Shown: positions 4,797 to 38,755 of the stretch, piece after piece | How the letters are laid out: every line of letters starts with the position of its first letter | Position numbering within the stretch: the stretch's first letter is position 1 | From: Pristiophorus japonicus | Lineage: Eukaryota | Direction of reading: 5' to 3' | Assembly: GCF_044704955.1 (NCBI RefSeq) | Contig: NC_091996.1 | Location: forward strand, 87,358,001-87,422,000 | DNA: 64,000 nucleotides | Notes under the pieces: generated by a model | Seen by the model: the letters and a program-made list of their open reading frames with translations, nothing else | Databases searched by the model: none | What the model was told of the DNA's origin: nothing | Position numbers and translations under genes: made by a program

Positions 4797-7082
4797 TCAC
4801 AGGTTGAGTCTCTCTGGTGGTTTACGCTCCCTTGTAGAGCGCCTGAGTTGGGGCTCCGGTTGTTGGGCGCTGGCCTGAGTGTCTGCTGTTTGCGGTGCCT
4901 CAGGCCTGTCCGGACTGCCCACAGTGACTGGGCTCTCCTCCCTTTGGTTCCGGTGTTCGGTCACCTGTGGTGGAGTGAACTCTATATCGTGTTCTTCCTC
5001 TGCTTCTTCTATGGGGTTGCTGAACCTCCTTTTTGTTTGATCCACATGTTTGTGGCAGATTTGTCCATTGGTAAGTTTAACTACCAGAATCCTATTTCCC
5101 TCTTTGGCAACCACAGTGCCTGCGAGCCATTTGGGCCCTGCAGCGTAGTTGAGGACAAAAACAGGATCATTTACATCAATACATCGCACCCTCGCATTCC
5201 TGTCATGGTAGTGATATTGTGACTGGCGCCTGCTCTCGACAATTTCTTTCATGTTGGGGTGTATAAGGGATAATCGGGTTTTGAGCTTCCTTTTCATTAG
5301 TAGCTCTGTGGGTGGAACCCCTGTCAGCATGTGTGGTCGGGATCTATAGGCCAACAGGAGGCGTGATAAGCGGGTTTGTAGGGAACCCCCTTGGAATCTG
5401 AGCATCCCCTGTTTGATTATCTGCACTGCTCGTTCTGCCTGGCCGTTTGAGGCCGGCTTGAACGGTGCTGTTCTAACATGGTTAATTCCATTGCCTGCCA
5501 TGAAGTCCTGGAATTCAGTGCTTGTGAAGCACGGGCCATTGTCGCTGACCAAGATGTCCGGTAGACCGTGAGCGTCGAACATTGCCCGTAGACTTTCTAC
5601 CGTGGCAGAGGATGTGCTTGAATTTAAAATGTCACACTCGATCCATTTGGAGTAGGCATCTACTACAACCAAAAAGATTTTCCCCATGAAAGGACCTGCA
5701 TAGTCCACATGGATGCGTGACCAAGGCTTGGCGGGCCATGGCCAGAGGCTAAGGGGGGCTTCCCTGGGCGCATGGCCCAGCTGGGCACACTTGTTGCACC
5801 TGCGAACACAAAGTTCCAGATCTGCGTCTATCCCTGGCCACCAAACGTGTGACCTGGCAATTGCCTTCATCGTGACAATGCCCGGGTGCTCATTGTGGAG
5901 TTCTCTGATGAACACCTCTCTGCCCATCTGGGGCATGACAACTCTGTTTCCCCACAGTAGGCAATCGGCCTGAATCGAGAGTTCATCCTTGCGCCTGTGA
6001 AATGGTTTAAATTTCTCAGGGCATGCCCTGTACGTGGCTGCCCAGTCCCCATTTAGGACACATTTCTTGACTAGAGACAATAGCGGGTCTCTATTTGTCC
6101 AGACTTTAATCTGACGGGCTGTCACGGGTGAGCCTTCGCTTCCGAAAGCTTCAACAGCCATGACCATCTCAGCACCATGCTCGGTAGCCCCCTCAGTGGT
6201 GGCTAGTGGGAGCCTGCTGAGTGCATCTGCGCAGTTTTCGGTGCCCGGTCTGTGCCGAATTGTGTAGTCATAGGCAGCTAACGTGAGTGCCCACCTCTGT
6301 ATGCGGGCCGATGCGTTTGCATTTATGGCCTTGTTGTCGGCCAAAAGGGACGATAGGGGTTTGTGATCTGTCTCCAGCTCAAATTTCCTGCCAAACAGGT
6401 ACTGGTGCATTTTCTTTACCGCATATACACATGCGAGCGCCTCCTTTACTACCATCCCGTAGCCCCTTTCTGCCTGGGACAGACTCCTGGAGGCATAAGC
6501 TACCGGCTGTAACTGACCCTTGGCATTGACATGCTGCAACACACACCTGACACCATAGGACGACGCATCGCACGTTAACACAAGTTTCTTACATGGGTCA
6601 TATAGCGTTAACAGATTGTTGGAACATAACAAATTGCGTGCTCTATTAAAAGCCCTTTCCTGGCTGTCCCCCCAGACCCATTCGCGACCTTTGCGTAGGA
6701 GCACGTGTAGCGGCTCTAGCAGCGTGCTCAATTTGGGAAGAAAGTTACCAAAATAGTTCAGGAGCCCCAGGAACGAACGCAGCTCCGTCGTGTTACGGGG
6801 TCTGGGTGCTCTCTGGATCGCTTCCGTCTTGGATGCAGTAGGGCTGATCCTGTCTGCTGCTACCCTCATCCCCAGGAATTCTACCTCTGGAGCTAGGAAG
6901 ACGCACTTCGCCTTTTTCAGTCGCAGATCTACCCGGTCCAGTCTGCGTAGCACCTCCTCCAGGTTGTGGAGGTGTTCTTCAGTGTTGTAACCCGTAATGA
7001 GGATGTCGCCCTGAAAAACCGCCGTCCCTGGAATCGACTTGAGGAGGCTTTCCATATTTCGTTGGAAGATCGCGGCGGCCAA
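4797..7082 (-). pseudogene. Gypsy pol C-terminal part: RT end, RNase H, integrase
   Basis: LRSFLGLLNY, LTCDASSYG, ETDHKPL, ADALSRL, integrase H..H..C..C, HVDYAGP, SDNGPCF, NGQAER; the RT YxDD motif reads FQGD (degenerate). Confidence 0.9.
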
Positions 7083-7161
7083 GCAAATCCCGAACGGACA
7101 GCTCGGATGGTGGTCAGCTTCTTCAACTCACTCGCCAGCTCCTGGTTCATGTAAGCTGAGG

Positions 7162-7884
7162 TCAGGTCCAATTTTGAAAAAGTTTGCCACCGGATAGCGT
7201 CGCAAAGAGGTCCTCCACTCTCGGTAGCAGGTACTGGTCTTGGAGTGACACCCGATTGATGGTGGCCTTGTAATCACCACATATCCTGACCGACCCATCC
7301 GCCTTGAGCACCGGCACAATCGGGCTCGCCCAGTCACTGAATTCGACTGGCAAGATGATGCCTTCCCTCAACAGGCGGTCCAATTCACCTTCGATCTTTT
7401 CCCGCATCACGTACGGCACTGCTCTGGCCTTGTGGTGTACTGGTCTGGCGTCCGGGTTTATGTGAATCACTACCTTGGCCCCCATGAAAGTGCCAATGCC
7501 GGGTTGAAATAATGAGTCAAATTTGTCCAGGACCTGTGAGCATGATACTCGCTCCACAGAGGAAATTGCATTGACATTGCCCCATTTCCAGTTCATGACA
7601 GCAAGCCAACTCCTCTCCAGTAGTGCGGGACCGTCCCCTGGGACAATCCAGATTGGCAACCTGTTCTCCGAATCTTTGTGGGTCATGACTACCATGGCGC
7701 TGCCAAGCACCGGAATGATCTGCTTTGTGTAAGTCCGTAGCTGTGCGTCAATCGGCGATAATTTTGGCCTCCTGGCCTTGGATGCCCACAACTTTTCGAA
7801 CTGTTTGATACCCATCAGGGACTGGCTGGCCCCCATGTCTAACTCCATTGATACTGGGATGCCATTGAGGAGCACTTTCATCAT
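7162..7884 (-). pseudogene. Gypsy pol N-terminal part: protease and RT start
   Basis: MELDMGAS (degenerate DTG protease motif), WASPIVPVLKADGSVRICGDYK; frameshifted from the downstream pol ORF. Confidence 0.85.
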
Positions 7885-7911
7885 TATCGGTGGCGTCCTG
7901 GTGTATGAACT

Positions 7912-8394
7912 CTATACGTGCTCCACATGAACTCGCTGAACTTCAGCTTCCAGCGATTTCCCCCAGTGTCCATTTCTGCAATTTCTGCAGGTATTTTGCT
8001 CATCTCTGCAAACTCTGGCTGAGTGTGTGCCTCCACGCCTCCAGCATGAGTTGCGGTTTGAAACAAAAGGTCCCTTGCCAGTCGATCGTCCCTGACTGCC
8101 CCTGTTATTGTCCTTGAGTGCACTATTAACAGGTGTTGATGGCCCCATTACTGGCCGCATTGTCCCTTGCAATGGCGTGAATCGCTGTTCAACTTGCCAT
8201 TGTCTCTGTCGAACTCCCCCTCTGGGTTCGACTACATGTTGGGGCATGTCTGACTGCCCTTGTCTGCCTGGAGAACTGTGTGCTGCTTTAACAATGTTGA
8301 ATCTCTGTCCCAACCATTCCTTAACACAGTACCTCTTGTCTGTTCTGCTAGTGGCCATGCTCGCGTGGTTTAAATCCCAGTTTCTTGTCGCCAT
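7912..8394 (-). pseudogene. Truncated gag remnant
   Basis: Zinc-knuckle relics CWRRGGTHSARVC and CRNC directly after the PBS; far too short for a full gag. Confidence 0.6.
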
Positions 8395-12619: not shown

Positions 12620-12915
12620 GGAACATTGTGGGCGGAGGAGTGGTGAATGAGGGTACGGGGCCCAGGGGCAGCACGGGCCCAGCCCACACTGCGCGATATG
12701 TGCGCGCAGTAGGTCCGTGCAGCAGAGCTGGTCTCCAGTCGTCCTGGTTAACCCTTGCCACTGGACCAAGACCTCGCTCTGTCAAGCCCGTGTGGTGGCT
12801 GGTGTGCAACGGCCACCCCACGTTAAAAAAATCCACCCACAGGCATTTTCCACCCCCTCAACTGGAGTTCAGGACTGGAACATCGGGTCCTTCATTGAAA
12901 CATCTGTGAACTCTT
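12620..12915 (+). mobile_element. Non-autonomous element/SINE with RTE-type tail; copies at ~23715-24230 (+) and ~27085-27530 (-)
   Basis: Shared GGGCAGCACGGGCCCAGCCCACACTGCG...CAAGCCCGTGTGGTGGCTGGTGTGCAACGGCCACCCCAC; the 24180-24230 copy ends TGGAAGCAAGTCATCCTC...(ATG)n like the RTE 3' end. Confidence 0.65.
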
Positions 12916-13789
12916 CATCAGCCCCAAGAACTCAGCGCCAGTTTTATTGTGCTGGAAAAAAAGCTGGGTCTTTCTGGACTTGAGCTCCATCAGAGCTTGG
13001 GTGATGTCCTGCTCGCCTTGCTGCTCCTTCTCCAAGATGATCCTGGCTCGCTCCTCGTCGGTCTCGTCCCCGCTCTTCCTGATCAGGGCTTGCATCTGGC
13101 CCTGATCAGGAAGGGCCGTCTATGATATAAGAATTAGGAACAGGAGTAGGCCATCTAGCCCCTCGAGCCTGCTCCGCCATTCAATAAGATCATGGCTGAT
13201 CTGGCCGAGGACTCAGCTCCACTTACCCGCCCGCTCCCCGTAACCCTTAATTCCCTTATGATGATGATGACGATAATTATAACTAACAATCAGAGGGCTG
13301 CAGCACACGCGTTGCGTTCGGTCCATCATCATCATCAGTCCCTCGGAATCGAGGAAGACTTGCTTCCACTCTTAGAATGAGTCCTCAGGTGACTGAACAG
13401 TCCAATACGAGAGCCACGGTCCCGGTGGCGGGTGGGACAGACAGTGGCCGAAGGAAAAAGGGGTGGGTGGGGAGCCTGGTTTGCCGCACGCTCCTTCCGC
13501 TGCCTGCGCCTGGCTTTCTGCAATGCTCCCGGGCGACGAGACTCGAGGGGCTCAGCGCCCCCTCCCGGGTGCACTTCCTCCGCTCGGGTGGGGGGGGGGG
13601 GGGGGCGGACCGGTCTTTGGCCCCAGGGGGGGGCTTCTCAGGTGTCGGTGGGGAACGTCGCACTTTTTTTCACGGGGCGGCTTCGAGGGCGGTCCTCGTA
13701 ACGTTGCCTCTGCCCGCCTTTTGGCTCGCTTGCAGCGAAGGAGTTGCGAGCAGAGCGCTTGGCTTTGGGAACACTGTTGGAACACATGC

Positions 13790-15699: not shown

Positions 15700-18600
15700 C
15701 CGGGGTTGGGGGTAATATATTAGCATGGATAGAGGATTGGCTAACTAACAGAAAACTCGGGTTGGCAACCAGTAACAAGTGGAGTGCCGCAGGGATCAGT
15801 GCTGGGGCCCCAACTATTTACCATCTATATTAACGACTTGGAAGAAGGGACTGAGTGTAACATAGCCAAGTTTGCTGACGATACCAAGATAGGAGGAAAA
15901 GCAATGTGTGAGGAGGGCACAAAAAATCTGCAAAAGGACATAGACAGGCTAAATGAGTGGGCAAAAATTTGGCAGGGGGATGGGAACCTATACAGGGAGA
16001 CAGAGGGAGACAAAAAGGAGGCAAAAGCAAAAGACAGAAAGGAGATGAGGAAAAGTGGAGGGCAGAGAAACCCAAGGCAAAGAACAAAAAGGGCCACTGT
16101 ACAGCAAAATTCTAAAAGGACAAAGGGTGTTAAAAAAGCAAGCCTGAAGGCTTTGTGTCTTAATGCAAGGAGTATCCGCAATAAGGTGGATGAATTAATT
16201 GTGCAAATAGATGTTAACAAATATGATGTGGTTGGGATTACGGAGACGTGGCTCCAGGATGATCAGGGCTGGGAACTCAACATCCAGGGGTATTCAACAT
16301 TCAGGAAGGATAGAATAAAAGGAAAAGGAGGTGGGGTAGCATTGCTGGTTAAAGAGGAGATTAATGCAATAGTTAGGAAAGACATTAGCTTGGATGATGT
16401 GGAATCTATATGGGTAGAGCTGCAGAACACTAAAGGGCAAAAATCGTTAGTGGGAGTTGTGTACAGACCTCCAAACAGTAGTAGTGATGTTGGGGAGGGC
16501 ATCAAACAGGAAATTAGGAGTGCATGCAATAAAGGTGCAGCAGTTATAATGGGTGACTTTAATATGCACATAGATTGGGCTAGCCAAACTGGAAGCAATA
16601 CGGTGGAGGAGGATTTCCTGGAATGCATAAGGGATGGTTTTCTAGACCAATATGTCGAGGAACCAACTAGGGGGGAGGCCATCTTAGACTGGGTGTTGTG
16701 TAATGAGAGAGGATTAATTAGCAATCTCATTGTGCGAGGCCCCTTGGGGAAGAGTGACCATAATATGGTGGAATTCTGCATTAGGATGGAGAATGAAACA
16801 GTTAATTCAGAGACCATGGTCCAGAACTTAAAGAAGGGTAACTTTGAAGGTATGAGGCATGAATTGGCTAAGATAGATTGGCTAATGATACTTAAGGGGT
16901 TGACTGTGGATGGGCAATGGCAGACATTTAGAGAACGCATGGATGAATTACAACAATTGTACATTCCTGTCTGGCGTAAAAATAAAAAAGGGAAGGTGGC
17001 TCAACCGTGGCTATCTAGGGAAATCAGGGATAGTATTAAAGCCAAGGAAGTGGCATACAAATTGGCCAGAAATAGCAGCGAACCTGGGGACTGGGAGAAA
17101 TTTAGAACTCAGCAGAGGAGGACAAAGGGTTTGATTAGGGTAGGGAAAATGGAGTACGAGAAGAAGCTTGCAGGGAACATTAAGGCGGATTGCAAAAGTT
17201 TCTATAGGTATGTAAAGAGAAAGAGGTTAGTAAAGACAAACGTAGGTCCCCTGCAGTCAGAATCAGGGGAAGTCATAACGGGGAACAAAGAAATGGCAGA
17301 CCAATTGAACAAGTACTTTGGTTCAGTATTCACTAAGGAGGACACAAACAACCTTCCGGATATAAAAGTGGTCAGAGGGTCTATTAAGGAGGAGGAACTG
17401 AGGGAAATCTTTATTAGTCGGGAAATTGTGTTGGGGAAATTGATGGGATTGAAGGCCGATAAATCCCCAGGGCCTGATGGACTGCATCCCAGAGTACTTA
17501 AAGAGGTGGCCTTGGAAATAGCGGATGCATTGACAGTCATTTTCCAACATTCCATTGACTCTGGATCAGTTCCTATCGAGTGGAGGGTAGCCAATGTAAC
17601 CCCACTTTTTAAAAAAGGAGGGAGAGAGAAAGCAGGGAATTATAGACCGGTCAGCCTGACCTCAGTAGTGGGTAAAATGATGGAATCAATTATTAAGGAT
17701 GTCATAGCAGTGCATTTGGAAAATGGTGACATGATAGGTCCAAGTCAGCATGGATTTGTGAAAGGGAGATCATGCTTGACAAATCTTCTGGAATTTTTTG
17801 AGGATGTTTCCAATAAAGTGGACAAAGGAGTACCAGTTGATGTGGTATATTTGGACTTTCAGAAGGCTTTCGACAAGGTCCCACACAGGAGATTAATGTG
17901 CAAAGTTAAAGCACATGGGATTGGGGGTAGTGTGCTGACGTGGATTGAGAACTGGTTGTCAGACAGGAAGCAAAGAGTAGGAGTAAATGGGTACTTTTCG
18001 GAATGGCAGGCAGTGACTAGTGGGGTACCGCAGGGTTCTGTGCTGGGGCCCCAGCTGTTTACATTGTACATTAATGATTTAGACGAGGGGATTAAATGTA
18101 GTATCTCCAAATTTGCGGATGACACTAAGTTGGGTGGCAGTGTGAGCTGCGAGGAGGATGCTATGAGGCTACAGAGTGACTTGGATAGGTTAGGTGAGTG
18201 GGCAAATGCGTGGCAGATGAAGTATAATGTGGATAAATGTGAGGTTATCCACTTTGGTGGTAAAAACAGAGAGACAGACTATTATCTGAATGGTGACAGA
18301 TTAGGAAAAGGGAAGGTGCAACGAGACCTGGGTGTCATGGTACATCAGTCATTGAAGGTTGGCATGCAGGTACAGCAGGCGGTTAAGAAAGCAAATGGCA
18401 TGTTGGCCTTCATAGCGAGGGGATTTGAGTACAGGGGCAGGGAGGTGTTGCTACAGTTGTACAGGGCCTTGGTGAGGCCACACCTGGAGTATTGTGTACA
18501 GTTTTGGTCTCCTAACTTGAGGAAGGACATACTTGCTATTGAGGGAGTGCAGCGAAGATTCACCAGACTGATTCCCGGGATGGTGGGACTGACCTATCAA

Positions 18601-19860
18601 GAAAGACTGGATCAACTGGGCTTGTATTCACTGGAGTTCAGAAGAGTGAGAGGGGACCTCATAGAAACGTTTAAAATTCTGACGGGTTTGGACAGGTTGG
18701 ATGCAGGAAGAATGTTCCCAATGTTGGGGAAGTCCAGAACTAGGGGTCACAGTCTAAGGATAAGGGGTAAGCCATTTAGGACCGAGATAAGGAGAAACTT
18801 CTTCACCCAGAGAGTGGTGAACCTGTGGAATTCTCTACCACAGGAAGTAGTTGAGGCCAATTCACTAAATATATTCAAAAGGGAGTTAGATGAAGTCCTT
18901 ACTACTCGGGGGATCAAGGGGTATGGCGTGAAAGCAGGAAGTGGGTACTGAAGTTTCATGTTCAGCCATGAACTCGTTGAATGGCAGTGCAGGCTAGAAG
19001 GGCTGAATGGCCTGCTCCTGCACCTATTTTCTATGTTTCTATGTTTCTATAATGTGGGAAAGTGTGAGGTCATGCACTTTGGCAAAAAAAAATCAAAGAG
19101 CAAGTTATTATTTAAATGGAGAAAGATTGCAAAGTGCCGCAGTACAGCGGGACCTGGGGGTACTTGTGCATGAAACACAAAAGGATAGTATGCAGGTACA
19201 GCAAGAGATCAGGAAGGCCAATAGAATCTTGGCTTTTATTGCAATGGGGATGGAGTATAAAAGCAGGGAAGTCTACAGCTATACAGGGTATTGATGAGGC
19301 CACACCTGGAATACTGCGTTCAGTTTTGGTTTCCATATTTACGAAAGGATATACTTGCTTTGGAGGCAGTTCAGAGAAGGTTCACTCGGTTGATTCCGGA
19401 GATGAGGGGGTTGACTTATGAGGAAAGGTTGAGGAAGTTGGGCTTCTACTCATTGGAATTCAGAAGAATGAGAGGTGATCTTATCGAAACGTATAAGATT
19501 ATGAGGGGGCTTGACAAGGTGGGTGCAGAGAGGATGTTTCCACTGATGGGGGAGACTAGAACTAGGGGGCATGATCTTAGAATAAGGGGCCGCCCATTTA
19601 AAACTGAGATGAGGAGGAATTTCTTCTCTCAGGGGGTTGTAAATCTGTGGAATTCGCTGCCTCAGAGAGCTGTGGAAGCTGGGACATTGAATACATTTAA
19701 GGCAGAGATAGGCAGTTTCTTAAACGATAGGGGAATAAGGGGAGCGGGCGGGGAAGTGGAGCTGAGTCCATGATCAGCCAGCCATGATCGTATTGAATGG
19801 CGGAGCAGGCTCGAGGGGCCATATGGCCTACTCCTGCTGCTATTTCTTATGTTCTTATGT
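15700..19860 (+). mobile_element. Older CR1 (15700-15975 and ~19047-19860) split by a younger CR1
   Basis: RT text ...RLNEWAKIWQ breaks at ~15975 and resumes YNVGKCEVMHFG at ~19047; tail TTCTTATGTTCTTATGT at ~19845-19860. Confidence 0.9.
16045..18951 (+). CDS. Intact CR1 ORF2 (APE endonuclease + reverse transcriptase), ~968 aa
   Basis: Uninterrupted: LNARSI, GITETW, GGGVALL, VYRPP, MGDFN, LDWVL, SDHN; [23 protein letters not shown]; 3' UTR and (TTTCTATG)n tail to ~19049. Start codon choice uncertain. Confidence 0.9.
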   Translation: MRKSGGQRNPRQRTKRATVQQNSKRTKGVKKASLKALCLNARSIRNKVDELIVQIDVNKYDVVGITETWLQDDQGWELNIQGYSTFRKDRIKGKGGGVALLVKEEINAIVRKDISLDDVESIWVELQNTKGQKSLVGVVYRPPNSSSDVGEGIKQEIRSACNKGAAVIMGDFNMHIDWASQTGSNTVEEDFLECIRDGFLDQYVEEPTRGEAILDWVLCNERGLISNLIVRGPLGKSDHNMVEFCIRMENETVNSETMVQNLKKGNFEGMRHELAKIDWLMILKGLTVDGQWQTFRERMDELQQLYIPVWRKNKKGKVAQPWLSREIRDSIKAKEVAYKLARNSSEPGDWEKFRTQQRRTKGLIRVGKMEYEKKLAGNIKADCKSFYRYVKRKRLVKTNVGPLQSESGEVITGNKEMADQLNKYFGSVFTKEDTNNLPDIKVVRGSIKEEELREIFISREIVLGKLMGLKADKSPGPDGLHPRVLKEVALEIADALTVIFQHSIDSGSVPIEWRVANVTPLFKKGGREKAGNYRPVSLTSVVGKMMESIIKDVIAVHLENGDMIGPSQHGFVKGRSCLTNLLEFFEDVSNKVDKGVPVDVVYLDFQKAFDKVPHRRLMCKVKAHGIGGSVLTWIENWLSDRKQRVGVNGYFSEWQAVTSGVPQGSVLGPQLFTLYINDLDEGIKCSISKFADDTKLGGSVSCEEDAMRLQSDLDRLGEWANAWQMKYNVDKCEVIHFGGKNRETDYYLNGDRLGKGKVQRDLGVMVHQSLKVGMQVQQAVKKANGMLAFIARGFEYRGREVLLQLYRALVRPHLEYCVQFWSPNLRKDILAIEGVQRRFTRLIPGMVGLTYQERLDQLGLYSLEFRRVRGDLIETFKILTGLDRLDAGRMFPMLGKSRTRGHSLRIRGKPFRTEIRRNFFTQRVVNLWNSLPQEVVEANSLNIFKRELDEVLTTRGIKGYGVKAGSGY

Positions 19861-29929: not shown

Positions 29930-30532
29930 GGTGTGGCAGGACGTTTGCAGCTGGGTCTGGTCTAAGATGGACCTGAATCTGGTCTAGGATGGAATTGGGT
30001 CTAGTATAGGATTGACCTGGATCTGGTTCAGGATGGACCTAGGTCTGGTCTCGGATGGACTTCAGTCTGGTATAGGATGGACCTGTGTCTGGACTAGGAT
30101 GGAATTGGGTCTAGTCTAGGATTGACCTGGGTCTGATTTAGGATGGACCTAGGTCTGGTCTAGGATGGAATTGGGTCTAGTCTAGGATTGACCTGGGTCT
30201 GGTCTAGGATGGACTTCGGTCTGGTCTAGGATGGAATTGTGTCTAGTCTAGGATTGACCTGGGTCTGGTTTAGGATGGACCTAGGTCTGGTCTAGGATTG
30301 ACCTGGGTCTGGTCTAGGATGGACTTCGGTCTGGTCTAGGATGGACCTCGGTCTGGTCTAGGATAGACCTGAGTCTGATCTAGAATGGAATTGGGTCTAG
30401 TCTAGGATTGACCTCGGTCTGGTCTAGGATGGAATTGGGTCTAGTCTAGGATTGACCTCGGTCTGGTCTAGGATCGACCTGGGTCTGGTCTAGGATGGAC
30501 CTGGCTCTGTCCCAGGATGGACCTGGCTCTGG
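29930..30532. repeat. Pentamer-based ~20-bp tandem repeat directly downstream of the CHST stop codon
   Basis: Units such as GGTCTGGTCTAGGATGGACC and GGGTCTAGTCTAGGATTGACC, alternating; degenerate toward 29800. Confidence 0.9.
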
Positions 30533-30538
30533 CCCCCG

Positions 30539-31738
30539 TCACACCAGCGGCTCGGACAGCAGCGAGACGTTCATGTCCAGCAGCTGGGCGCGGTCCTTCA
30601 CCATCTGGTAGCCGAGCTGCCTCATTGCGCCGCCGCAGAAGCCCTGCACCTTCTCCACCGTCTCCATCCCCAGCTGGCCCCTCCAGCCGCTGGCCACCAG
30701 GCCGGCGTCGCGGGCCGACACGGCGAAGGGCTCGCTCTGGTTGTGGCGCCGGCCGCCGGAGAGGCCCAGCAGGAAGCCCTCCAGCTCCCTGGTCACCCGC
30801 AGGCCGGCGAAGGCGTACAGCCGGCGCAGGGAGTGCAGCGGGCGGGCCAGCAGGTCCTCGAAGCGCAGGAGCAGGTAGTTGTCCCGGTAAGGGGGCCGCC
30901 GGGCCAGGGCCAGGCTGCGGTTCAGCCCGGCGCACAGCACCTCCAGGGCGCCCACCGCGTTGAGGTCGGGGGGCAGGCGGGCGACCGGTGGCTGCCTCCT
31001 CTCGTGGAGGCGCCGCAGGACCTGCAGGTTCTCCCGGATCAGCCCGTGGCGGGAGCGGAGCCTGGAGCTGCCAACGGCCCGGGGGTCCCTGACCAGGTGG
31101 ACCACCTTCAGGCCCAGCTCCTCGATGAGGGGCTGCAGCACCCCCAGGTCCAGGATGCGCACCCCCTTGATCACCACGGCGCCGTACTTGGGGCACTCGG
31201 CCTGCAGCCGCTCCAGGCTCTGCGGGGGGCAGTCGCGCTTGCAGATGTCCTCGTTGACCATCTCCACCCGGTCCTTGTGGCAGGCCGGGCACTGGGGCCG
31301 GGAGCAGACCACCTTGTTGCGGGAGGCATAGAAGAGGTCGCGGGTGGTCAAGGCCTCATCGGCCCCGCCCTTCGCCGGCCGCGGGTGGTAGAGCTGCAGC
31401 ACCGAGAGGTCGCAGCGGTACAGGCCGCGCAACACATCGCGCACCGCGCCCTGCAGGCTCTCGGCGTCCCCGGGGTACAGCGCCTGCCAGGCGTGCCAGG
31501 CCGGCTCGAAGTGGTAGAAGACGTCGGGGTGCTGGTTGAAGAGCTCGCCCACTAGGGACGAGCCGGAGCGCCAGGTGGTGAGCAGGTAGACCCGTCGCGT
31601 CGGGTCCCCCGGCGGGATCTGGGATGGGGGTTCCCCGCAGCCCCGGAACGCGATCAGGTAGTTGACCGCCAACGTGACGGTCACCAGGGCCCCCAGCAGG
31701 ACCGCGGACCGCTGCATCCGGCCGCCGCCCGCCGCCAT
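30539..31738 (-). CDS. Carbohydrate (GlcNAc-6-O) sulfotransferase, CHST2/CHST7-like, 399 aa, single coding exon
   Basis: Type II signal anchor (SAVLLGALVTVTLAVNYLIAF); 5'-PSB motif TTWRSGSSLVGELFNQHPDVFY; LYPGDAESLQGA; NKVVCS; VIKGVR; 3'-PB motif HLVRDPRAVGSSR; GC3-rich intact ORF; Kozak GCGATGG. Confidence 0.95.
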   Translation of the reverse strand: MAAGGGRMQRSAVLLGALVTVTLAVNYLIAFRGCGEPPSQIPPGDPTRRVYLLTTWRSGSSLVGELFNQHPDVFYHFEPAWHAWQALYPGDAESLQGAVRDVLRGLYRCDLSVLQLYHPRPAKGGADEALTTRDLFYASRNKVVCSRPQCPACHKDRVEMVNEDICKRDCPPQSLERLQAECPKYGAVVIKGVRILDLGVLQPLIEELGLKVVHLVRDPRAVGSSRLRSRHGLIRENLQVLRRLHERRQPPVARLPPDLNAVGALEVLCAGLNRSLALARRPPYRDNYLLLRFEDLLARPLHSLRRLYAFAGLRVTRELEGFLLGLSGGRRHNQSEPFAVSARDAGLVASGWRGQLGMETVEKVQGFCGGAMRQLGYQMVKDRAQLLDMNVSLLSEPLV

Positions 31739-31915
31739 CGCTCGCGGGCCGTGTGGGGAGAGTCGGAGACCGGTTCACAGCCCTGGGGCTGCAGCTCTGT
31801 CCGCAGTGCTCAACGTCTGACGTCCGCTTATAGCCGCGTTCCTGCAACGTCTCACCAGCCCATCCAGCGACATCTTCCAGAACCTGACGGGGAGGAGCCA
31901 CTACATTAGTTCGTG
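31739..31915 (-). promoter_or_regulatory. Splice acceptor and 5' UTR part of the CHST coding exon
   Basis: Minus strand ACTAAT (branch point) GTAGTGGCTCCTCCCCGTCAG|GTTCTG, exon starting at 31883; candidate upstream donor GAG|GTGGGA at ~33312. Confidence 0.55.
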
Positions 31916-31944
31916 GTTTCAATCCCTCACTTAGAGGAGAAGGC

Positions 31945-33300
31945 TAATATCTCTCTCTCTCTCGGTCCCCAATTACTTTCTCTCTCTCTCTCTCACTCGG
32001 TACACTTTCTCTCTCTCTCGCTCTCTGTACATTCACATTCTCTCTCTTGGTCCCCACTTACTTTCTCTCTCACTCGGTACACTCTCTTCTATCTGTACAC
32101 TCACGTTCTCTCTCTCTCTTGGTCCCCACTTACTTTCTCTCTCTCTACACTTTCTCTCTCTCTATGTATGCTTTCTCTCTCTCGCTGCACACTTTCTCTC
32201 TACGCTTTCTCGCTCTCTACACTTTCTCTCTCTACATTTTCTCTCTTTCTGTTGTTCCCCACTTCTTTCTCTCTACATTTTCTCTCTCTCTATATACACT
32301 TACTGTTGTAGGCATTAGGCACCTGCTGAATATATCAAAACCTAGGGCAGCGGCACCTGTAGCATGAGGTTAGAATTACACCTGTAGCATAAGGTTAGAA
32401 CTAAATGTAACTCTAATACCATAAAATGGCTACCCGTGAAGCCTCAAGGGATTTCTGTTAGCTGAACTAGACCGCATTCCTGGAAACTGATAATTGTTGT
32501 TTCCCACACACAGGACTAACAAGCAAACTTTGCAGATGTCTCTAATCAGCCAGGCCTCAGACAAAATGTTCTGGTGAATGTAAGGACAATACGACTCTGT
32601 AACAGGATTAAGATAAGGAGGCTACCCAAAGACAGCGCCCAAGGACAGTAAGATAAGGGGGGCCTGGGCCATGTTACAAGGTACATGAGTCATTCCTAGC
32701 AACACATCTCTTAGCAACACATCTCTTAGCAACACATGAGCCACTTTATGTTTAGAAACTAACTCTATCTATTGGTCTAATTGAATCTATAATCTATATG
32801 ATTGGATAGTGTCCAGCCAAAATGGGCTGATGTAACTGTAGTAAACTGTTGTAAAACATATAAAAATCCATGAAATCCTTTGTTCGGCGGAGAGAAGTGC
32901 CTGGATCCAGTCCTGAGGCTTCCTCCCGGCTGGCATAAATAAAGGCCGCATTGGCGTTGGAACCGACTCTGAGTGTTGAGTGATTCTTCCAAGAAAACAT
33001 TCACGCTAACACTTACTCTCTCTCTCTCTCTCCATACACTCTCTCTCTCTGTACACTCTCTCTCTACACTTTCTCTCTCTCTCTGTACACGTACTTTCTC
33101 TTTCTCTCTCTCGGTTTACCTACGTTCCCTCTCTCTACCTACGTTCCCTCTCTCTCTCTTGGTCCCCACTTACGTTTTCTCTCTCTCTCTCTCTCTCTCT
33201 GTACACTTCCACTCTCTCGCTCTCTGTTTACCTACGATCCCTCTCTCTCTTGGTCCCCACTTACGTTCTCTCTTTCTCTCTTTCTCTCTCTTTCTCTCGC
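31945..33300. repeat. (CT)n-rich low-complexity repeat split by an LTR
   Basis: CTCTCT with recurring TGGTCCCCACTTAC and TACAC on both sides of 32304-32999. Confidence 0.9.
32304..32999 (+). mobile_element. ERV-like solo LTR (~700 bp)
   Basis: TGTTG...AAACA termini; internal direct repeats (CACCTGTAGCATxAGGTTAGAA x2, TAGCAACACATCTCT x2-3); AGATAAG x2; TATAAAA ~32859; AATAAA ~32938; interrupts the CT repeat; TSD imperfect. Confidence 0.7.
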
Positions 33301-33691
33301 CGATGGTCCCACCTCGCCCTTCTGTCAAAGTCTTCGAAAGGCGAGCGGCCCTTTTCCCGAAGCTGCTCCGAGCCCAGCAGCGATCAGCCTGTCCCTCTCC
33401 AGGCTCGAGTTTCCTGCTGGGGAAATACTGCTGCTGTGACGTGGCGGCTGACTGGACCTTTGTCCCGCTGATGTTTGGGGACGGGCAGGGTCGAGAGTCG
33501 GGGTCATTGCACGACCTCGCCAAGACAAACACTTGCGCAACGGCTGAACAAACTCTGCCCTGGATACCGTCTCGTGAAAAGTTACCTCGGCAGAAAATCG
33601 ATTTGCGGGCCGAGGACTTTCAGTGTGGGTGAGAGACGAGGCCACAGATTATGGTCGTTGATGTCAGAGGGCGAGATATCGGCATCATTTG

Positions 33692-36149: not shown

Positions 36150-36790
36150 ATGTCAGTGAGTTGCCATGGGAGAGGAGTCAGGGGCTTCCTATCCGCGTGG
36201 CTATTCGCTAGTCCGGCCCTTTCCTTCCCCCTCCCACGCGCTGGGTCCTCTGGGCCATTGTCCCGAGCCTCTCCTCTCCCCTCCCCTCTCCTCTTCCCCG
36301 GAGCAAGATGGAGGAGCACCTCAAGCTGGGCCTGGCCCAGTGTTTCCACCTCGACACCATCACCCCTAGACTCGCCTGACGTCCTGAGCGGCATGGCCCT
36401 GCGATTGGTCAGGTAACGGGGGGGGGGGTGGTGAGGGGGGTTTGTGGGGGGGGGGGGTGAGCGGCAGGAGGCTCGAGTGCTTAGATTTTCCCGCGTGCGC
36501 GTGTATGTGTGTAAAATCGTCTGTTTGTGTCACAAAATGGCCGCCCCCATCGACACCACGAATGCACAAATGGCTCCGATACATCATGTGACTTTTAGCG
36601 GTGTTTCCTAGCCGTTGCAGTACTGCAGTACACCACCAGGTGGAGCCCCACATTACCCCCCCTCCCCCACTTTCTCCAGACCCCACCTCTTTTCGATTCG
36701 TCTCTCTCTCTCTCTCTCTCTCCAGACACTCCCACCTCGACCCCCACCTTCGGACCTTCCCTCTGCAGCCTCCCTCCGGACACCCAACAT
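36150..36790 (+). pseudogene. Internally deleted duplicate of the KCTD11 locus
   Basis: 36153-36310 aligns to the 5' flank and ATG (37366-37558); 36311-36416 aligns to the last ~35 codons (38266-38371) with a frameshift; 36470-36790 aligns to 38790-39100. Confidence 0.85.
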
Positions 36791-38374: not shown

Positions 38375-38755
38375 GGGGTGGGAGGGGGGACAGGCCGAGC
38401 ACGTATGTTCTCCCGAGCTGCGATTGGTCAGGTACTGAGGGGTGGGGGGGTGGGGGGACGAGCGGGGGGGTGGGGGGGGCAGGCCGAGCGCGTATGTTCT
38501 CCCGCGCTGCGATTGGTCAGGTACTGAGGGGTGGGGGGGTGGGGGGACGAGCGGGGGGGTGGGGGGGGGCAGGCCGAGCGCGTATGTTCTCCCGCGCTGC
38601 GATTGGTCAGGTACTGAGGCTGGGGGGGGAGGGACGAGCGCGTATGTTCTCCCGCGCTGCGATTGGTCAGGTACTGAGGCTGGGGGGGGAGGGACGAGCG
38701 CGTATGTGCTCCCGCGCTGCGATTGGTCAGGTACTGAGGCTGGGGGGGGGGGGGC
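38349..38755 (+). repeat. Tandem repeat (60-90 bp) of the KCTD11 terminal codons and stop
   Basis: CGCGCTGCGATTGGTCAGGTACTGAGG plus G-tract, 6 copies (GATTGG at ~38358, 38422, 38511, 38601, 38661, 38721). Confidence 0.95.

Follow-up and report, generated by a model that had tools for sequence, protein, structure and literature searches.

A candidate ancient third paralogue of the sulfotransferase genes CHST2 and CHST7 in the shark Pristiophorus japonicus

Our analysis of a 64,000-nucleotide stretch of Pristiophorus japonicus DNA (the window) shows that it encodes an intact sulfotransferase, at C20:87.389 Mb of the genome, and this gene is most likely an ancient third CHST2/7 paralogue that arose by genome duplication. 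The original prediction had put forward a candidate third 1R/2R-derived paralog, and it gains support from the position of the gene outside CHST2 and CHST7, from the separate CHST2 and CHST7 genes of the same genome and from synteny with a paralogous block. The new lineage branches before CHST2 and CHST7 each divide into shark and bony lineages, and sequence relationships firmly indicate a gene older than the split between sharks and bony vertebrates.

The frame is open from ATG to stop and the protein carries the Pfam domains Sulfotransfer_1 and Sulfotransfer_3, both above their cut-offs (34.8 bits for PF00685, cut-off 22), so that the claim of an intact 399-residue sulfotransferase holds (Table 1). 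A chance frame is excluded by a match to a horn shark protein at E 2e-163 and by a GC3 of 0.97 compared to 0.46 at codon position 2. Enzymes of the C6OST family are type II Golgi proteins with a membrane anchor near the N-terminus, which bind PAPS via two motifs and sulfate the 6-hydroxyl of a sugar. In the predicted structure of the new protein the anchor region is a helix at residues 5-32, and the stem between the predicted helix and the catalytic domain is about 17 residues long, compared to 48 in the animal's own CHST2 and 58 in its own CHST7 by the same crude measure, in agreement with the very short stem first described. The family motifs given in the available text of a published survey are RxGSSF for 5'-phosphosulfate binding (5'PSB) and RDPRxxxxSR for 3'-phosphate binding (3'PB) (PMC7353957). 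The change of F to L at the last 5'PSB position is found in the window protein only, and the related horn shark and lungfish proteins retain F. The LNMT sequon is present in 16/16 CHST2 and 11/14 CHST7 references and is lost from the window, horn shark and lungfish proteins, which have L326 and S327 of LLGLS in common. The window protein has a two-residue deletion near residue 207 and retains 84 of the 94 columns that are invariant across 29 CHST2 and CHST7 proteins, and 43 of the 47 that are conserved across 44 gnathostome C6OST family members.

Table 1. Features of the window, with positions counted from its first nucleotide
Feature	Position	Strand	Basis or remark
CHST2/7-related sulfotransferase, single coding exon, 399 aa	30539..31738	-	uninterrupted frame, ATG to stop
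Predicted type II membrane anchor, residues 13-31	31646..31702	-	hydropathy, mean 2.21
5'-phosphosulfate-binding motif RSGSSL	31553..31570	-	5/6 positions of family consensus RxGSSF
3'-phosphate-binding motif RDPRAVGSSR, residues 217-226	31061..31090	-	full RDPRxxxxSR match
LLGLS replacing the LNMT glycosylation sequon of CHST2/7	30758..30772	-	sequence comparison
Possible 5' UTR intron	31884..33312	-	from sequence: donor-like site at 33312 and an acceptor-like site that ends at 31884
22-bp tandem repeat, 26.5 copies	29951..30532	none	directly after the sulfotransferase stop codon
KCTD11/21-type gene, 272 aa	37556..38374	+	Pfam domains BTB_2 and KCTD11_21_C
Degraded partial KCTD copy	36234-36427	+	5' flank joined to 3' end, 75-79% identity
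Tandem arrays repeating the last bases of the KCTD gene	38375-38753		
Open stretch similar to Pfam TC1, C-terminal half	12892-13119	-	E 4.5e-9
LTR-type pol in pieces	4797-8394	-	retrotransposon frames named by inspection
LINE-type ORF2, 1015 aa without stop	15904-18951	+	named by inspection

Elsewhere in the window, repeat-like DNA and an acceptor-like site come before the stretch that matches TC1, which may be a second exon or remnant of a TCIM/AVPI1-type gene. The degraded KCTD copy lies 1.2 kb upstream of the intact KCTD gene.

Of 17 scored candidates in a search of the P. japonicus genome with the window protein, 9 matched. Besides the window gene itself (C20), they comprise a gene on C6 (52% identity), another on C10 (49%), a group of three on C13, and single genes on C14, C15 and C22. 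In our trees the C6 gene falls within CHST2 and the C10 gene within CHST7; a C13 copy groups with CHST5, and the genes on C22 and C14 belong to the CHST1/3/16 branch, while the C15 gene lay outside the tree sampling. The genes on C22, C14 and C15 are probably CHST3, CHST16 and CHST1, respectively. Matches to Na/H exchanger, DIPK2, scramblase and ATP1B genes adjoin the C6 CHST2, and the C10 CHST7 has a weak match to a Na/H exchanger at a distance of 85 kb; SLC9A6/7/9, DIPK2 and PLSCR are listed as neighbour families of CHST2/CHST7 in the survey text available (PMC7353957). The window gene is outside the gnathostome CHST2 clade, and the SLC9A9/DIPK2A-type locus is occupied by the C6 CHST2; it is equally outside the gnathostome CHST7 clade, and the SLC9A7-type place is held by the C10 gene, where the exchanger match is weak. 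Since the canonical CHST2 and CHST7 loci are both filled, the window gene is an additional copy, and a single gene standing in for one of them, which would have run against the original prediction, was not what we found. On C13, three near-identical CHST5-type genes of alternating orientation lie within 135 kb (C13:157.49-157.63 Mb), and the GC3 of one of them was measured as 0.40.

An orthologue is present in the horn shark Heterodontus francisci (XP_067880082.1), with 66% identity over the whole length and 69% in a global alignment; it scored 562 bits compared to 372 for the best CHST2 in our first protein search (best 120 of 426 matches). It is a record separate from horn shark CHST7, and its gene lies on a 19.5-Mb sequence whereas horn shark CHST7 lies on one of 163 Mb. 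The existence of this orthologue disposes of a retrocopy specific to P. japonicus. A profile search of the same protein collection gave no further orthologue among the best 120 of 866 matches. An exhaustive search of 50% representatives found a 403-aa protein of the lungfish Protopterus annectens (XP_043932150.1), which is annotated 'CHST2-like' and is distinct from lungfish CHST2 (XP_043926940.1). When the lungfish protein was used as the query, no closer relative appeared among the best 120 of 427 matches, in which the horn shark protein ranked second, behind chimaera CHST2. The lungfish protein was absent from the best 120 of 426 and of 866 matches, so that equally divergent orthologues may be missed. 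Among the matches listed there was no tetrapod, ray-finned fish or coelacanth candidate, and many annotated sharks and rays that had a CHST2 or CHST7 match showed no orthologue; for a gene on a GC-rich block, such absence may reflect gene loss or an assembly gap. Both the horn shark and the lungfish relatives are known only as automatic 'CHST2-like' annotations.

Several other candidates were set aside. An Acipenser match (462 bits) proved to be an internally duplicated CHST7, the CHST4/5-like proteins of amphibians and turtles fall in the CHST5 branch, and two bichir 'CHST2-like' proteins nest within CHST2, where they are unusually fast-evolving (branch about 0.7). We also dropped a count of unique residues as support for the three-protein clade: the unique columns that the lungfish protein has in common with the shark pair number 5, and those in common with the long-branched bichir CHST2 pair used as control number 6, so that the count is non-discriminating. 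RefSeq accession order, which may not follow position, failed as a proxy for lungfish and horn shark synteny; the accession-number neighbours of the lungfish record are ANXA2, HIF1A, HIF4A and a desmin, and no gene of 17p13 type is among the entries listed (including PMC13004952).

The KCTD11/21-type gene lies head-to-head with the sulfotransferase, 5.8 kb away, and is likely KCTD11 rather than KCTD21 from gene order and sequence features; the Atlas comparison did not tell the two apart. To the right of it, exons on the + strand encode SAM_TNK, tyrosine kinase, SH3 and GTPase-binding domains. This ACK/TNK kinase is 85 kb from the sulfotransferase and its closest solved protein is ACK1; of 150 candidates scored with the kinase exon, just two reach E<=1e-22, one on C20 and the other at C6:264.8 Mb. 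A scramblase follows on the - strand (C20:87.514-87.521 Mb, 125 kb from the gene), with paralogues 2.3-2.6 Mb from CHST2, and then a TSC22D first-exon motif (C20:87.610 Mb, 220 kb from the gene), which matches two loci upstream of TSC22 domains (C6, C11) and has its best paralogue on C6; on C20 we did not find the TSC22 domain itself. We take the individual names of these neighbours from family and position rather than from trees. On C20 the order (Mb) is ArfGAP 85.9, new gene 87.39, scramblase 87.52, TSC22D-like 87.61 and ATP1B 93.97; on C6 it is ATP1B 224.6, CHST2 226.2, scramblases 228.5 and 228.8, TSC22D 234.7, p53-family 251.1 and ArfGAP 256.4. The scramblase, ACK/TNK, TSC22D, ATP1B and ArfGAP families are thus on both, with the order CHST, scramblase, TSC22D in common, and a p53-family match was not found on C20 (match counts are lower bounds). 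C10, the CHST7 chromosome, also has scramblase, KCTD11/21-type and ArfGAP matches, and because it shares some block families synteny alone does not name the sister. Synteny is thus better evidence for membership of the paralogon than for which paralogue is the sister.

The kinase and scramblase downstream follow the human 17p13 order KCTD11-TNK1-PLSCR3, as had been anticipated. For ACAP1, also expected among the flanking genes, an ArfGAP-domain exon is present on C20, but it is 1.4 Mb away and ACAP1 as a close neighbour is unconfirmed. A published gene list for human 17p13, which is not a full annotation, includes ACAP1, KCTD11, TNK1, PLSCR3 and NLGN2 and no CHST gene in the part available (PMC5791184), in keeping with the earlier statement that no CHST2/7 gene is known there. 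Regions of human X, 3, 13 and 17 descend from one pre-duplication region according to the accessible text of PMC11762692, in line with the proposed paralogy of 17p13 to 3q and X. In the 200 kb left of the window a GC3-based exon scan revealed no clear gene by eye; Pfam was applied to 12 of the 94 exon candidates, a set that did not extend to those left of the window. The genome has three KCTD11/21-type genes (window; C10:190.31 Mb; C3358), of which the C10 copy, 9 Mb from CHST7, is 48% identical to the C3358 copy and 35% to the window copy and is possibly another retained ohnologue. DIPK2-type and ATP1B matches also occur together at C11:63.2-65.7 Mb, where CHST had no match, and this region may be a fourth block of the paralogon.

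The motifs quoted in the original prediction occur in the window protein and sort CHST2 from CHST7 as it stated. LYRCDLSV was read directly in the window protein and scored against the references as LYRCDLS. TTWRSGSS is found in 16/16 CHST2 and 0/14 CHST7 references, VIKGVR in 14/16 and 1/14, and QALYPGD in 0/16 and 13/14; RSRHGLIRE is exact in only 3/16 CHST2 references, its looser form being present in 16/16. At 28 columns diagnostic between CHST2 and CHST7, the window protein agrees with CHST2 at 11, with CHST7 at 10 and with neither at 7. Eight of these CHST7-type residues and seven of the CHST2-type ones are also found in one or more of four outgroups. The mixture is present as described, but since 8 of the 10 CHST7-like residues also occur in outgroups it is not an independent sign of an intermediate position; it consists mostly of retained ancestral states, as expected of an early-branching third lineage, with no need of recombination. 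A CHST2/CHST7 chimera was dropped on the same comparison, as the CHST7-like residues are mostly ancestral.

Our main tree (32 rows, careful search, LG+C20+F+G4) unites the window, horn shark and lungfish proteins (95/95) and makes this clade the sister group of gnathostome CHST2 as a whole (88/84), with the CHST2 and CHST7 clades at 100/98 each. The corresponding values in a catalytic-domain tree of 31 rows are 91/88 for the three-protein clade and 87/88 for the sisterhood with CHST2, and a quick tree of 55 rows agrees in shape. The CHST2/CHST7 branch, including the window protein, is set apart from CHST5 and CHST1/3/16 at 100/100 in the 32-row tree and 99 in the 55-row tree. Eight AU tests were applied to the 32-row set, chosen after the first trees had been seen and read at nominal p. 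They clearly reject placing the shark pair among the CHST2 proteins of cartilaginous fish (p 0.0028) or among their CHST7 proteins (p 9e-5), and such nesting, which would have counted against the original prediction, was thereby not observed. Placing the lungfish protein as a duplicate of lungfish CHST2 (p 0.039) or with bichir CHST2 (p 0.036) was marginal. The stem branch of the new gene is long (0.36-0.58 across trees), the lungfish branch measures 1.1-1.3, and the path between the two sharks is 0.53 for the new gene compared to about 0.32 for their CHST7; by these sequence distances the new gene evolves faster than CHST2 and CHST7.

On balance the new clade is more likely than not the sister of CHST2, and the lungfish protein is probably orthologous to the shark pair. 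The strongest competing explanation keeps the gene as an ancient paralogue but makes it a first-round copy or the sister of CHST7, with the lungfish gene perhaps a fourth copy drawn in by long-branch attraction, and we consider this possible but doubtful. When the five long rows (lungfish, two cyclostome, two bichir) are removed, the shark pair, CHST2 and CHST7 form a three-way fork, and the AU tests do not reject a new clade outside CHST2+CHST7 (p 0.12), a new clade with the cyclostome CHST2-like pair (p 0.084) or a lungfish protein that goes with CHST2 apart from the sharks (p 0.12). The best match of the lungfish protein in the P. japonicus genome is likewise CHST2 (331 bits, vs 297 for the window gene). 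Sisterhood with CHST7, in turn, is marginally rejected (p 0.047), the diagnostic residues of the window protein that are absent from all four outgroups include 4 of CHST2 type and 2 of CHST7 type, and the two-member ACK family pairs C20 with C6. As for a separate lungfish copy, the short stem, the loss of LNMT and the shared R243, L272, L326, S327 and Q365 support orthology of all three proteins. The proposed retention in cartilaginous fish is therefore borne out by two sharks but is probably not confined there, as the lungfish protein joins the clade.

With the gene read as a third CHST2/7 paralogue, the parsimonious acceptor is GlcNAc, because the human genes of the branch all carry GlcNAc6ST names (CHST2, 4, 5, 6 and 7 in the survey text available, PMC7353957), and by analogy the enzyme is quite likely a GlcNAc 6-O-sulfotransferase. 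By the same analogy it is likely located in the Golgi. An enzyme acting mainly on chondroitin N-acetylgalactosamine, an acceptor that CHST7 (C6ST2) can use, rather than on N-acetylglucosamine is unlikely. CHST7 is indeed also active toward chondroitin sulfate (PMC7353957, available text), and it is CHST7 that the window protein resembles at 10 of the 28 diagnostic columns; yet most of those matches (8 of 10) are ancestral states, CHST2 is the sister that our trees favour, and the same source, as far as accessible, argues that chondroitin activity arose separately in CHST3 and CHST7. The predicted structure (pLDDT 68.9, from a 10-sequence alignment) has a sulfotransferase fold that matches tyrosylprotein and other sulfotransferases, and the Atlas model aligns with a chordate sulfotransferase cluster at TM 0.84, but a predicted fold of this kind gives no information on the acceptor. 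Searching solved structures by sequence, we obtained a single match (E 0.27) and found no solved C6OST structure, and a literature search showed no usable mutagenesis data among 15 of 123 matches. Nothing in our analysis connects the gene to the abundant sulfated glycosaminoglycans of sharks, and we do not retain that suggestion.

It is very improbable that the gene is a duplicate or retrocopy of CHST2 peculiar to sharks or cartilaginous fish, which would have diverged rapidly and come to lie near KCTD11 by chance. The long stem branch, the strong GC bias and a certain orthologue in only one other shark, among the matches listed, would fit such an origin, and the intronless frame does not speak against a retrocopy, since the coding regions of CHST2 and CHST7 are also intronless. 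It is opposed by the AU rejections of nesting given above, by H70, Y75 and A86, which are ancestral residues kept here and lost by all CHST2, and by the place of the gene in a paralogous block. A decaying gene with an open frame and little or no activity would account for the altered 5'PSB motif, the small deletion, the lost sequon and the fast evolution, and the degraded KCTD copy nearby shows local turnover, but we regard it as highly unlikely given full-length frames in two sharks about 30% apart that keep 43 and 44 of the 47 family-wide columns, an intact 3'PB motif and the predicted fold.

Among known relatives, CHST2 (GlcNAc6ST-1) resembles the new gene in its TTWRSGSS, KGVR and SRHGLIRE-type motifs, its intronless frame, its neighbours from the same families and its standing as favoured sister in three trees; the new gene differs from it in lying outside the CHST2 clade (98-100) and on another chromosome, in a stem about 30 residues shorter, and in sequon loss and rate. 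With CHST7 (GlcNAc6ST-4 / C6ST-2) it shares FNQHP and QALYPGD, residues that are ancestral, whereas it is without ATWRTGSS and KDVR and keeps a C-terminus of CHST2 length. CHST16 (Daza and Haitina, PMC7353957, available text) is likewise a genome-duplication paralogue kept in fishes and lost in amniotes, but it belongs to the CHST1/3 branch, and has two coding exons, and the CHST16-type gene of P. japonicus is a different locus, on C14. A lamprey CHST2-like protein has a similar residue mosaic, although in the best trees the cyclostome 'CHST2/7-like' proteins are excluded from the gnathostome group (87-92).

We propose that a duplication in the early vertebrate genome doublings would have given a third CHST2/7 gene beside CHST2 and CHST7, in a KCTD11-TNK1-PLSCR3 block (human 17p13) that would be the counterpart of the CHST2 segment (human 3q). 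The copy would have evolved faster than CHST2 and CHST7 and been kept in at least two sharks and probably lungfish, with presumed losses where it was not found, in tetrapods and ray-finned fish; on the negative searches and the published human gene list, it is likely lost in mammals. Only tentatively do we specify it further, as a second-round twin of CHST2 on a 17p13-type microchromosome block, kept in sharks and lungfish and lost separately in ray-finned fish and before tetrapods, whose short stem and lost sequon might give a sulfation pattern absent in mammals.

A survey of 158 species, the only one of the whole family that we found, recognised six C6OST subtypes, with only CHST2 and CHST7 in this jawed-vertebrate sub-branch, and held that two genome duplications added just two genes, for six in total (2019 survey, PMC7353957, in the text available). 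Its species table lists seven cartilaginous fishes, and the accessible part of its supplement does not mention lungfish, Protopterus or Heterodontus. Our literature search, with subscription journals mostly outside its scope, found no description of a third CHST2/7 gene among the matches listed, and the best reading is that this ohnologue is missing from the survey as far as its text was available. With it, the genes added by duplication would become three and the C6OST total seven. Genes prone to loss are reported to lie in GC-rich regions that go back to ancestral microchromosomes (PMC10208646, where the available text does not mention CHST), and the new gene would be another example of a gene hidden in a GC-rich block. 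A third ohnologue implies no new chemistry. If the lungfish gene is an orthologue, the loss would date near the fish-to-tetrapod transition, and the new gene offers a comparator for studying how chondroitin activity was acquired by CHST7 and GlcNAc specificity kept by CHST2.
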